DNA from: Enterobacteria phage GEC-3S
Sequence record: HE978309
Strand: one strand, 5' to 3'
Length of the DNA: 64,000 nucleotides
Below the pieces are notes generated by a model that was not told the origin of the DNA, did not search any database, and saw only the letters and a list, made by a program, of their open reading frames with translations. Below, piece by piece: positions 53,196-55,018 of this stretch (the first letter of the stretch is position 1; every line of letters starts with the position of its first letter). Made by a program: the position numbers and the translations under genes.

Positions 53196-53894
53196 CTAAC
53201 CACGGGTATAGTGTTCCAGAACAACTGTCAGATGAATATATTCTAATAGATCTTTCCAAAAGTCAACATCTGGTTCTTCCGGCATACCGTTTTTCTTTGC
53301 CTCTTCACGCGCGAGTTTAACACGCTCGTAGAGATCTTTCAATTCTTCCCGCACATTATCAAAGGTTCTTTCTCCTAACTTACACGCTAAAATAGAAGAA
53401 CGTCGCGCGAGCGGGAATTGTAGATCACCTGTCTGGTAGATTTCAAGTAGCTGATAACCAACACGCAGAGCATGAGAAAGATCTTTCCAGTTACTGAAAT
53501 ACTTTTCCGATTTGGCTACCTGTTTCTTGAGATAACCAGACAAACCCCACATACCAACATGATAGAATTTATCGCGATGTGTTCGGATGTATTCCCATTC
53601 TCTGGAGGATTCGATCAACATGTTACTAGGCGCGTGCACCATGTCAATAGCGCCGATATCACCTTTACATGCCAGATTGATAAACCGTTTTAGACTGAAC
53701 ATATTAACGTCAATATCGTCTTTGGTGTTCTTGATCCCTTGACCGCTAGTGCTTTGGTCATAGTGTTCTTTCATCGATCCTAAGATAATTTCTTTCGCAG
53801 TCGGAACAAAGATACCACGATAATCTTTATCGGAATTTTCAGTATCAAGGCCGTATAAGTGAGATCCGAAGACCATTTTAACCATTGTATGCAT
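53196..53894 (-). CDS. nucleotidyltransferase-like protein (Pol-beta superfamily signature), function unknown
   Basis: 232 aa; N-terminal GSHLYGLDTENSDKD fits the GS-x(9-13)-D-x-D pattern; C-terminal helical region. Confidence 0.45.
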   Translation of the reverse strand: MHTMVKMVFGSHLYGLDTENSDKDYRGIFVPTAKEIILGSMKEHYDQSTSGQGIKNTKDDIDVNMFSLKRFINLACKGDIGAIDMVHAPSNMLIESSREWEYIRTHRDKFYHVGMWGLSGYLKKQVAKSEKYFSNWKDLSHALRVGYQLLEIYQTGDLQFPLARRSSILACKLGERTFDNVREELKDLYERVKLAREEAKKNGMPEEPDVDFWKDLLEYIHLTVVLEHYTRG

Positions 53895-53980
53895 AATTAA
53901 ACCCTCAGTTGATTAAGAGATTGCATCATATCATCATAAAACGAAAAAGCCAACCCTTTTCGGATTGGCTTGATGAAAAA

Positions 53981-54397
53981 TTAGAGAGATTCGGTAAAGG
54001 TACGCGCGATAACGTCACGCTGCTGGTCTGGAGTCAGACTATTGAAGCGCACTGCGTAACCAGAAACGCGAATTGTAAGCTGCGGGTACTTCTCAGGATG
54101 TTCAACAGCGTCCAGCAACATTTCTCGTAACAATACGTTAACATTCAAATGCTGGCCACCTTCGACAACCGGAGCACCATTATCTACAATGACAGGACGG
54201 AAGCTAGTTGTGTGCAGTGCCAGCGAATCGACGTCTTCTGCGGTGATCACATGATCTTCCGCGAAAGTTTTACTAACAATTACTTTAGCGCCGATCAGTG
54301 CTTTCGGTTCGGATACCAGAATCATAGGCGCGAAGTGTCCACCAATAATAGTACCTTTATGCTCACCTTTCATGATTTGAATTGCTTTAAATTCCAT
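53981..54397 (-). CDS. grcA: autonomous glycyl radical cofactor (GrcA/YfiD-like)
   Basis: 138 aa; C-terminus [12 protein letters not shown]...[35 protein letters not shown] is near-identical to the PFL/GrcA glycyl-radical domain as recalled. Confidence 0.85.
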
Positions 54398-54532
54398 AAT
54401 TCACCTCTTATAGATCAGGACGTTCGTCATTAACTTTTCCAACCAAAACACCATAGAGTTTATCAGGTTGGACTTTACGATTCTTTTTAATTGTAGCACG
54501 AAATCGACGAGCTACGCTATCTTTATTTTTCA

Positions 54533-55018
54533 TTAGTTGATACCTAAGCCAATGAAAATAGGTTGGTCTTCTACATTACCCACCCCAACACTAAGTCGAT
54601 TCACTTCTAAAAACTGCAATACGCTGTCAGTAAATCCGCGCATGGTAGTATCTAGGATAAAAATTGTTTTGTCAAGACTACGACCTCGCCATGTGATCGG
54701 ATTCAGGAAAGTTCGGATCGACGTACAATCTACATTTGAAATATTTACATTTTCACCGCGACCGCGATCTCGGATCGTTTTGGCATGTTCCCGCGTCGTT
54801 GAAACGATAAAGACACTATAGCCTTTTCTAGTATAATGGTCATATAACTTGATTGTAGCGTCTGTATGCCCTGTCTGACGTCCTAAATTGATTGAGACGA
54901 TGGAATCTAGGTCATCAGCAAAATTGCGTCGCTTACGACGTTCTATGATGCCATTTACGGCAGATACACACGCAGCATAAATCAAATCTTTACTTTCTAA
55001 TTTTACATCAATATTCAT
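54533..55018 (-). CDS. hypothetical protein (161 aa)
   Basis: ATG with SD GGAGA; no motif recognised. Confidence 0.5.
   Translation of the reverse strand: MNIDVKLESKDLIYAACVSAVNGIIERRKRRNFADDLDSIVSINLGRQTGHTDATIKLYDHYTRKGYSVFIVSTTREHAKTIRDRGRGENVNISNVDCTSIRTFLNPITWRGRSLDKTIFILDTTMRGFTDSVLQFLEVNRLSVGVGNVEDQPIFIGLGIN

Follow-up and report, generated by a model that had tools for sequence, protein, structure and literature searches.

The 232-residue nucleotidyltransferase of phage GEC-3S is a short-form, RlaP-family NrdC.11 with a candidate role in RNA repair

A 64,000-nucleotide stretch of DNA from Enterobacteria phage GEC-3S (record HE978309), referred to here as the window, contains a gene for a 232-residue protein that, as judged by sequence comparison, is orthologous to the product of nrdC.11 in phage T4 and represents its Krischvirus (RB49-type) version, and whose assignment to the RlaP family (PF10127) is essentially certain. 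The function that we consider moderately probable, by analogy with other members of the family, is restoration of nucleotides at RNA 3′ ends for subsequent repair by the phage enzymes Pnk and RNA ligase 1 (Rnl1). An initial annotation had read the protein as a nucleotidyltransferase (NTase) of the DNA polymerase β (Pol-β) superfamily, placed it in an operon with genes for a GrcA-like glycyl-radical cofactor (here vs.6) and an unknown 161-residue protein (here vs.8), and suggested that it might be a nucleotide-signal synthase or an anti-defence or modification enzyme. The coordinates of the three open reading frames (ORFs), all on the minus strand, agree with the ORF list, and the superfamily assignment is upheld by the RlaP match and the intact catalytic residues. 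In DNA, the region from 52900 to 55500 is 98–99% identical to Krischvirus genomes (Cognac, JEP8, Phi1, RB49, and 53 others), and by this similarity the window is from an RB49-like “pseudo-T-even” Krischvirus of the Straboviridae, a relative of T4.

The 232-residue protein matches the Pfam RlaP model (“RNA repair pathway DNA polymerase beta family”) with a score of 53.6 bits (gathering threshold 23; E = 3.4e-14), residues 7–191 aligning with model positions 24–198 of 249, and matches the nucleotidyltransferase family phrog_388 with an E value of 2.1e-79. PF10127 is also matched by T4-type NrdC.11 and by the relatives P0002, P0143, P0153, and P0230. The initial annotation saw no obvious T4 counterpart and considered the protein too short for the large NTase families; however, the gene is named nrdC.11 in the annotations of RB49 and Phi1, BLASTP aligns its product with the T4-type NrdC.11 of phage AR1 (AR1_099, 337 residues) with an E value of 4e-54 and a single gap of ∼105 residues, and 232 residues comes near the 249 positions of the Pfam model, it being the T4-type form that has ∼105 residues more. 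The alignment with AR1 takes in the NTase region at the N terminus as well as the helical region at the C terminus. The orthologues (336–337 residues in the T4 type) share ∼45% identity over common blocks, agree in their catalytic residues, and have a C-terminal helical domain in common, with its AxxEAxKNG helix, but differ in genomic position, the T4-type gene lying beside nrdC.10 and the mobD region and the present one between vs.6 and regB. Homologues were found by tblastn in 1618 phage records, among them those of virtually every T4-type phage, in which the gene goes by the name nrdC.11, together with T4-like phages of Acinetobacter, Aeromonas, and Klebsiella, Bacillus phages, and actinophages; an exhaustive search of representatives gave 3575 clusters with homologues at E ≤ 1e-3. 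A search of NCBIfam with the protein gave no match, and sequence searches of a copy of the Protein Data Bank (PDB) that apparently lacks the Pseudomonas fluorescens RlaP structure, with the single sequence and with a 42-sequence profile, returned no NTase and only chance matches to a haemoglobin and SAMTOR.

The N terminus of the protein, MHTMVKMVFGSHLYGLDTENSDKDYRGIF, contains the Pol-β-type signature recognized in the initial annotation, GSHLYGLDTENSDKD, at residues 10–24. All elements of the Pol-β set that were sought are present, namely the hG[GS] turn (Gly10-Ser11), the D-x-D motif (Asp22-x-Asp24), and a third aspartate (Asp60/Asp62), and each of these six residues is invariant in an alignment of 42 close relatives. 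Thirty-one ORFs with 25–50% identity were also taken from 62 bacterial loci and loci of metagenome-assembled genomes (MAGs), from Bacillaceae, Campylobacterota, Desulfovibrionaceae, Saccharibacteria, and others, a distant set from which residue conservation and insert length alone were assessed; in its 32 sequences the same six residues are again invariant, as are Gly15, Ser21, Asn56, Gly78, Tyr121, Gln125, Lys137, His141, and Arg144. The second and third catalytic acidic residues, whose absence would by the initial annotation's own criterion have spoken against an NTase, are thus present and invariant. In an AlphaFold2 (AF2) model built from the 42-sequence alignment (predicted local distance difference test (pLDDT) score 92.4, predicted template modelling score 0.88), Gly10-Ser11 lie at the turn between β1 and the following helix, Asp22-x-Asp24 at the start of the strand formed by residues 23–30, and Asp60/Asp62 at the start of the strand of residues 61–67. 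The model shows a two-domain layout, in which an α/β NTase core (about residues 1–96) is followed by a helical domain (98–230), the helical region anticipated from the sequence, ending in a long last helix (210–230). This layout fits the published description of the crystal structure of the Pseudomonas fluorescens RlaP (PfRlaP), in which the NTase domain is combined with a helical domain and a terminal helix. A Foldseek search of the PDB gave KNTase/ANT(4′) as the best match, together with Hailong HalB, the uncharacterized NTase-like structure 3C18, LinB, and AadA; the best matches among solved structures are enzymes that combine an NTase domain with a helical bundle, but all are weak, with template modelling (TM) scores of ∼0.4 and identities of 10–17%.

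Relative to T4-type NrdC.11, ∼105 residues are absent between positions 128 and 136 of the window protein. The segment lying between residues 125 and 137 of this protein has a length of 13 residues, as against 18–27 in short forms from Bacillaceae and 100–119 in the long forms, among them T4-type NrdC.11 and most close relatives. Short forms follow the Pfam model through the helical domain, whereas the T4-type long form stops at model position 142, where the additional module begins. This module carries the nearly invariant motifs YGxKGSR and YGERA...N; Pfam and PDB searches with the insert of the T4-type protein recognized no domain in it. In phage AR1 it was located at L002:5382–5720 (residues ∼129–241 of NrdC.11), and a module of ∼100 residues is present also in cellular and MAG homologues from Campylobacterota, Desulfovibrionaceae, and Saccharibacteria. 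Because nearly all relatives with more than ∼40% identity are long, the exceptions being the Krischvirus group, a 57%-identical sister, P0002, and a few scattered short proteins (P0143, P0153, and P0230), the Krischvirus protein is most simply viewed as a derived, minimized NrdC.11.

The RlaP family owes the name that Burroughs and Aravind gave it to the RNA ligase genes with which it is frequently linked, and Iyer et al. (2021) predicted that its members restore nucleotides lost from RNA ends ahead of ligation. The family now has an activity and a crystal structure in addition to a name, from the preprint of Carruthers, Fatma, and Huang (December 2025; PMC12776372). RNA was the sole E. coli macromolecule to be labeled by two Pseudomonas RlaPs, which attach one or two nucleoside monophosphates (or deoxynucleoside monophosphates) to the RNA 3′-OH; the enzymes favor the 5′ half of a cleaved-tRNA mimic, work best with Mn2+, and partly restore aminoacylation of a tRNA that lacks one nucleotide of the anticodon loop, and RlaP was proposed to be an antidote to “smart” ribotoxins such as RloC (PMC12776372). 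The same work places T4 NrdC.11 in the RlaP family as cluster 5. We infer a role of NrdC.11 in RNA repair from this biochemistry. By analogy, the phage enzyme would use nucleoside triphosphates (NTPs), probably with Mn2+, for untemplated addition of one or two nucleotides to an RNA 3′-OH; during infection it would put back on a cleaved tRNA half the nucleotide excised by an anticodon nuclease such as RloC, and phage Pnk (pseT) and Rnl1 (rnlA) would then heal and seal the tRNA. The window protein resembles the RlaPs of P. fluorescens and P. aeruginosa, which are encoded in rtcB-rlaP-rtcA operons, in belonging to the same Pfam family, in having an NTase domain with three conserved aspartates and, as predicted by the AF2 model, a C-terminal helical domain with a terminal helix, and in its length as judged from the 249-position Pfam model. 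It differs in that the Pseudomonas enzymes belong to a separate sequence cluster (1a, as opposed to cluster 5 for T4 NrdC.11) and in that no RNA ligase gene adjoins it; the partners in phage would be the 5′-phosphate ligase Rnl1 and Pnk and not RtcB.

RB49 does encode pseT and rnlA, but several observations weigh against this reading. The two genes lie ∼75 kb from nrdC.11, and no RNA ligase gene is found among the neighbors of nrdC.11 in the window or adjacent to it in T4-type phages, so that the co-occurrence is at the level of the genome only; it should be noted, however, that an RNA ligase neighborhood is a contextual trait of part of the RlaP family and not of every member. Distant homologues in mycobacteriophage LeBron and on a Bacillus plasmid have no RNA repair genes as neighbors. 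The biochemistry of RlaP comes from one preprint on two Pseudomonas enzymes of another sequence cluster (PMC12776372), and because the short form is without the conserved module, its substrate range may differ. Laboratory T4 stays viable after loss of the interval nrdC.11-mobD.3; such dispensability is expected of a conditional counter-defence gene and does not establish any function. In favor of the reading, the genes around a distant RlaP homologue of Gordonia phage Neville (gp85; region 50863–59450) include those for an RNA ligase (gp80) and for a Ro-like RNA-binding protein (gp91) as well as tRNA genes, a cluster that has the appearance of a phage island for RNA repair or quality control.

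A different use of the same activity, which we regard as unlikely but worth weighing, is that NrdC.11 is a general RNA 3′-tailing enzyme, adding short non-templated tails to host or phage RNAs (mRNA, tRNA 3′ ends, or RegB cleavage products) and so altering their stability or function during host takeover. In vitro, RlaPs label many E. coli RNAs, including rRNA, full-length tRNA, and tRNA fragments, and accept any of the four NTPs (PMC12776372). The Krischvirus gene also stands in an array of RNA-directed genes, with that for the RegB endoribonuclease ∼0.8 kb downstream and the valyl-tRNA synthetase modifier gene vs and dmd further on, and the lack of an adjoining ligase gene is in keeping with tailing. 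However, the preference for the 5′ half of a cleaved tRNA and the addition of no more than one or two nucleotides, as reported in the preprint, fit tailing poorly, and the position adjacent to regB is not kept in T4-type phages.

That the protein makes or mimics a second messenger, or is another kind of anti-defence or modification enzyme, as first suggested, now appears improbable. The Pol-β NTase superfamily fold does include signal synthases, and the region is rich in counter-defence genes (dmd, 57B, and the macro domain gene tk.4), but there are no matches to CD-NTase, SMODS, or defence-system models in PADLOC and Pfam and no CD-NTase among the fold matches, and the sole activity measured for the family is addition to RNA 3′ ends, proteins and DNA being unreactive. 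Very improbable, in our estimate, is a HalB-like activity, in which oligonucleotides synthesized de novo, protein-primed or free, could restore or imitate the ligand that inhibits a DNA-gated defence channel. Acceptance of dATP as a donor by PfRlaP (PMC12776372) and the conservation of tyrosines in the family (Tyr121 invariant and Tyr14 identical in 30 of 32 sequences) recall HalB, which primes on a tyrosine. The likeness to Hailong HalB (PDB 9DBH) is only at the level of the fold, with 13% identity and no sequence-profile match even at E ≤ 10; KNTase-type enzymes score about equally in Foldseek; and RlaP neither labels proteins nor extends DNA (PMC12776372). HalB is moreover a component of host anti-phage defence that is paired with the HalA channel and makes oligodeoxyadenylate DNA primed on its own tyrosine, whereas RlaPs extend RNA, and the present gene has no HalA-like partner.

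The arrangement of the genes (Table 1) bears on the proposed operon, a stronger form of which would be a functional module of Vs.8, the GrcA-like Vs.6, and the NTase, the last for example nucleotidylating or otherwise regulating the glycyl-radical spare part or its activase. All 57 Krischvirus records, as well as one divergent Krischvirus-like relative, L007, have the three genes on the same strand and near one another, and vs.8, orf41, and vs.6 are tightly packed: the start codon of orf41, an ORF of 41 residues absent from the initial annotation, overlaps the stop codon of vs.8 by 4 nucleotides (ATGA type), and a gap of 10 nucleotides separates it from vs.6. The gap between vs.6 and nrdC.11 is 86 nucleotides and holds a canonical intrinsic terminator, AAGCCAAUCC-GAAAA-GGGUUGGCUU then UUUUCGUUUU, with a GC-rich stem of 10 base pairs and a U-tract (ΔG of −15.6 kcal/mol, z score −4.54; none of 200 shuffled sequences was as stable), as well as a promoter-like site upstream of nrdC.11, a match to the σ70 consensus only, which overlaps the terminator tail. 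The hairpin is conserved: L007, whose proteins are only 45–57% identical, has the same gene order, including an ORF of 39 residues at the orf41 position, and a nearly identical hairpin after the GrcA-like gene, following which an HNH homing-endonuclease gene separates that gene from the RlaP gene. T4-type phages keep the order e-ip-vs.8-vs.7-vs.6-vs.5/4/3-regB, with nrdC.11 next to nrdC.10 and the mobD region at a distance of ∼7.5 kb. Since these phages retain vs.8 to vs.6 with nrdC.11 elsewhere, the unit of vs.8 to vs.6 is ancestral; on the evidence of gene order, vs.8, orf41, and vs.6 form a tight unit closed by the conserved terminator, and nrdC.11, which lies beyond it, was relocated beside it in the Krischvirus lineage. 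The two families are, furthermore, often apart, GrcA-like genes occurring in T5-like phages and RlaPs in actinophages and Bacillus, and RlaP leaves proteins unmodified in vitro (PMC12776372). On the terminator and synteny evidence a functional operon was rejected; we give the module scarcely any credence, and nrdC.11, vs.6, and vs.8 appear to have independent functions.

Least credible of all is a small-molecule NTase of the antibiotic-resistance type (KNTase, LinB, or ANT-like), since, although ANT(4′)/KNTase and then LinB and AadA head the Foldseek matches, TM scores are ∼0.4 with identities of 10–12%, no Pfam or NCBIfam model of such families is matched, and it is RlaP, with RNAs as its substrates, that is matched strongly; this reading, like that of a signal synthase, was rejected for want of specific similarity.

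Table 1. Positions in the window of nrdC.11, its neighbors, and the intervening signals
Feature	Position	Strand	Evidence
nrdC.11 orthologue, short-form RlaP-family (PF10127) Pol-β nucleotidyltransferase, 232 residues	53196..53894	-	ORF, Pfam, PHROG, BLASTP, AF2
σ70-like promoter match, TTGGCT-17-TATGAT with TG extension	53925..53953	-	Consensus match only
Intrinsic terminator hairpin, directly after the vs.6 stop codon	53947..53971	-	Scan, RNA fold, counterpart in L007
vs.6, autonomous glycyl-radical cofactor (GrcA/YfiD-like, T4 Y06I type), 138 residues	53981..54397	-	PF01228, TIGR04365, 6OWR
orf41, basic ORF of 41 residues, at the T4 vs.7 position	54408..54533	-	ORF, phrog_13848 (1.1e-30), RB49p100
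vs.8, small P-loop-fold protein with degenerate Walker A/B, 161 residues	54533..55018	-	phrog_1488, BLASTP, AF2, Foldseek

In L007 the HNH gene between the GrcA-like and RlaP genes (L007:3951–4547) is of the HNH/NUMOD4 type, and T4-type nrdC.11 likewise borders homing-endonuclease genes, mobD and segE, which suggests endonuclease-driven shuffling of nrdC.11.

The reading of the Vs.6 neighbor as GrcA-like, with a C terminus almost identical to the enterobacterial glycyl-radical domain, is confirmed. Vs.6 matches PF01228 (1.5e-16) and contains the glycyl-radical motif RVSGY, and it matches E. coli GrcA (PDB 6OWR) with an E value of 5.8e-33. Like E. coli GrcA/YfiD and T4 Y06I it is a stand-alone protein of ∼14 kDa, the last ∼60 residues of which, including RVSGY, are nearly identical to GrcA and to the C terminus of PflB. 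It is 60% identical to T4-type Vs.6 but differs from it in an N-terminal half that is divergent and longer by 18 residues. Its score against the bacterial GrcA model TIGR04365 of NCBIfam (133.8 bits, E = 3.9e-39) falls under the equivalog cut-off of 170 because the N-terminal half is divergent, and by these comparisons the phage protein is better described as of the Vs.6/Y06I type than as a bacterial GrcA equivalog. Homologues are present in 1579 phage records, T5-like phages included. Y06I we take to be the product of T4 vs.6, in keeping with the RefSeq naming of vs.6. The precedent of a T4 spare part invoked in the initial annotation is sound, in that two spare parts for pyruvate formate-lyase (PFL) cleaved by oxygen have been validated by experiment and Y06I is one of them (PMC8683613); installation of the radical by PFL activase and rescue of the oxygen-cleaved enzyme are attributed to T4 Y06I and E. 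coli YfiD by Wagner et al. (2001), as cited in PMC8683613. The link to NrdD that had been envisaged is not the one that is known, the demonstrated target of Y06I being oxygen-cleaved PFL (PMC8683613). On sequence grounds, Vs.6 is of this known GrcA type and would serve as a spare part for that enzyme.

The protein of 161 residues, an unknown in the initial annotation, belongs to a known family, being a divergent Vs.8 (phrog_1488, 9.4e-39; T4-type Vs.8 by BLASTP, 2e-6). Direct word-index and tblastn searches with it found Krischvirus copies only, and the T4-type family was reached by way of a bridged profile, which retrieved 52 relatives of Vs.8; 46 sequences were aligned. It resembles T4 Vs.8 in belonging to the same PHROG, in lying at the same place upstream of vs.7/vs.6, and in its P-loop-type fold, the AF2 model (pLDDT 87) giving Foldseek matches to single RecA-like/P-loop domains of helicases, RecA, and terminase ATPases. 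It differs in sharing only ∼20–26% identity and in its nucleotide-binding motifs. An intact Walker A, GRQ[ST]GK[ST], and Walker B, [DE]E, are present in 42 of the 46 aligned members, all of T4 type; the other four, of Krischvirus type, have GHT (GRQTGHT) and DT (FILDT) instead, so that the Walker A lysine is replaced by histidine and the Walker B glutamate by threonine. Judging from the model and these substitutions, Krischvirus Vs.8 is a P-loop protein that is probably inactive as an ATPase, and it offers a minor instance of a likely pseudo-ATPase.

The genes considered here and those around them are on the minus strand, and the GC content is ∼40% throughout the window. In RB49 the counterparts are annotated as nrdC.11 (nucleotidyltransferase), vs.6, RB49p100, and vs.8, and are flanked upstream by an endolysin of the M15 peptidase type and downstream by three small paralogous ORFs followed by regB, vs.1, vs, and tk.4. 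Where T4 has gene e, the endolysin encoded here (55081–55470, minus strand) is an L-alanyl-D-glutamate peptidase of the M15 family (PF13539) and not a T4-type lysozyme, and upstream of it (55499–57688, minus strand) are at least 8 small ORFs of 54–88 residues, strongly hydrophobic and membrane-protein-like, whose RB49 counterparts are hypothetical proteins. The three tandem paralogous ORFs between nrdC.11 and regB (52344–53174, minus strand; 111, 86, and 64 residues; phrog_6261, phrog_15978) stand where T4 has vs.3-vs.5. Tk.4 (50402–50857, minus strand) is a stand-alone macro domain protein (PF01661, phrog_335), and the region containing tk.4, regB, vs, and dmd has many host-takeover genes related to RNA and ADP-ribose. 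A search of the whole window at Rfam gathering scores found no families, tRNAs included; Krischvirus is evidently without tRNAs in this region, unlike T4.

Much of what is described here was known. The NTase assignment (COG3541) of nrdC.11 orthologues and the Gly_radical assignment of vs.6 were published in 2006, both annotations dating from 2003–2006, and the label nrdC.11/nucleotidyltransferase has been in use since publication of the RB49 genome, as it is in RefSeq. The initial annotation was accordingly a correct motif reading of a known gene in a known family, whereas its ideas of a signal synthase and of an operon with GrcA lack support. The finding has little weight as matters stand, and interest now lies in the role of NrdC.11 in phage and the meaning of the absent module of ∼100 residues. 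The Krischvirus short form and the T4 form constitute a natural experiment, comparison of which could show what the module contributes. It was in T4 that RNA repair was discovered. Should NrdC.11 put back the nucleotides that RloC-type anticodon nucleases take out, the healing-and-sealing pathway of Pnk and Rnl1 would be made complete by it.

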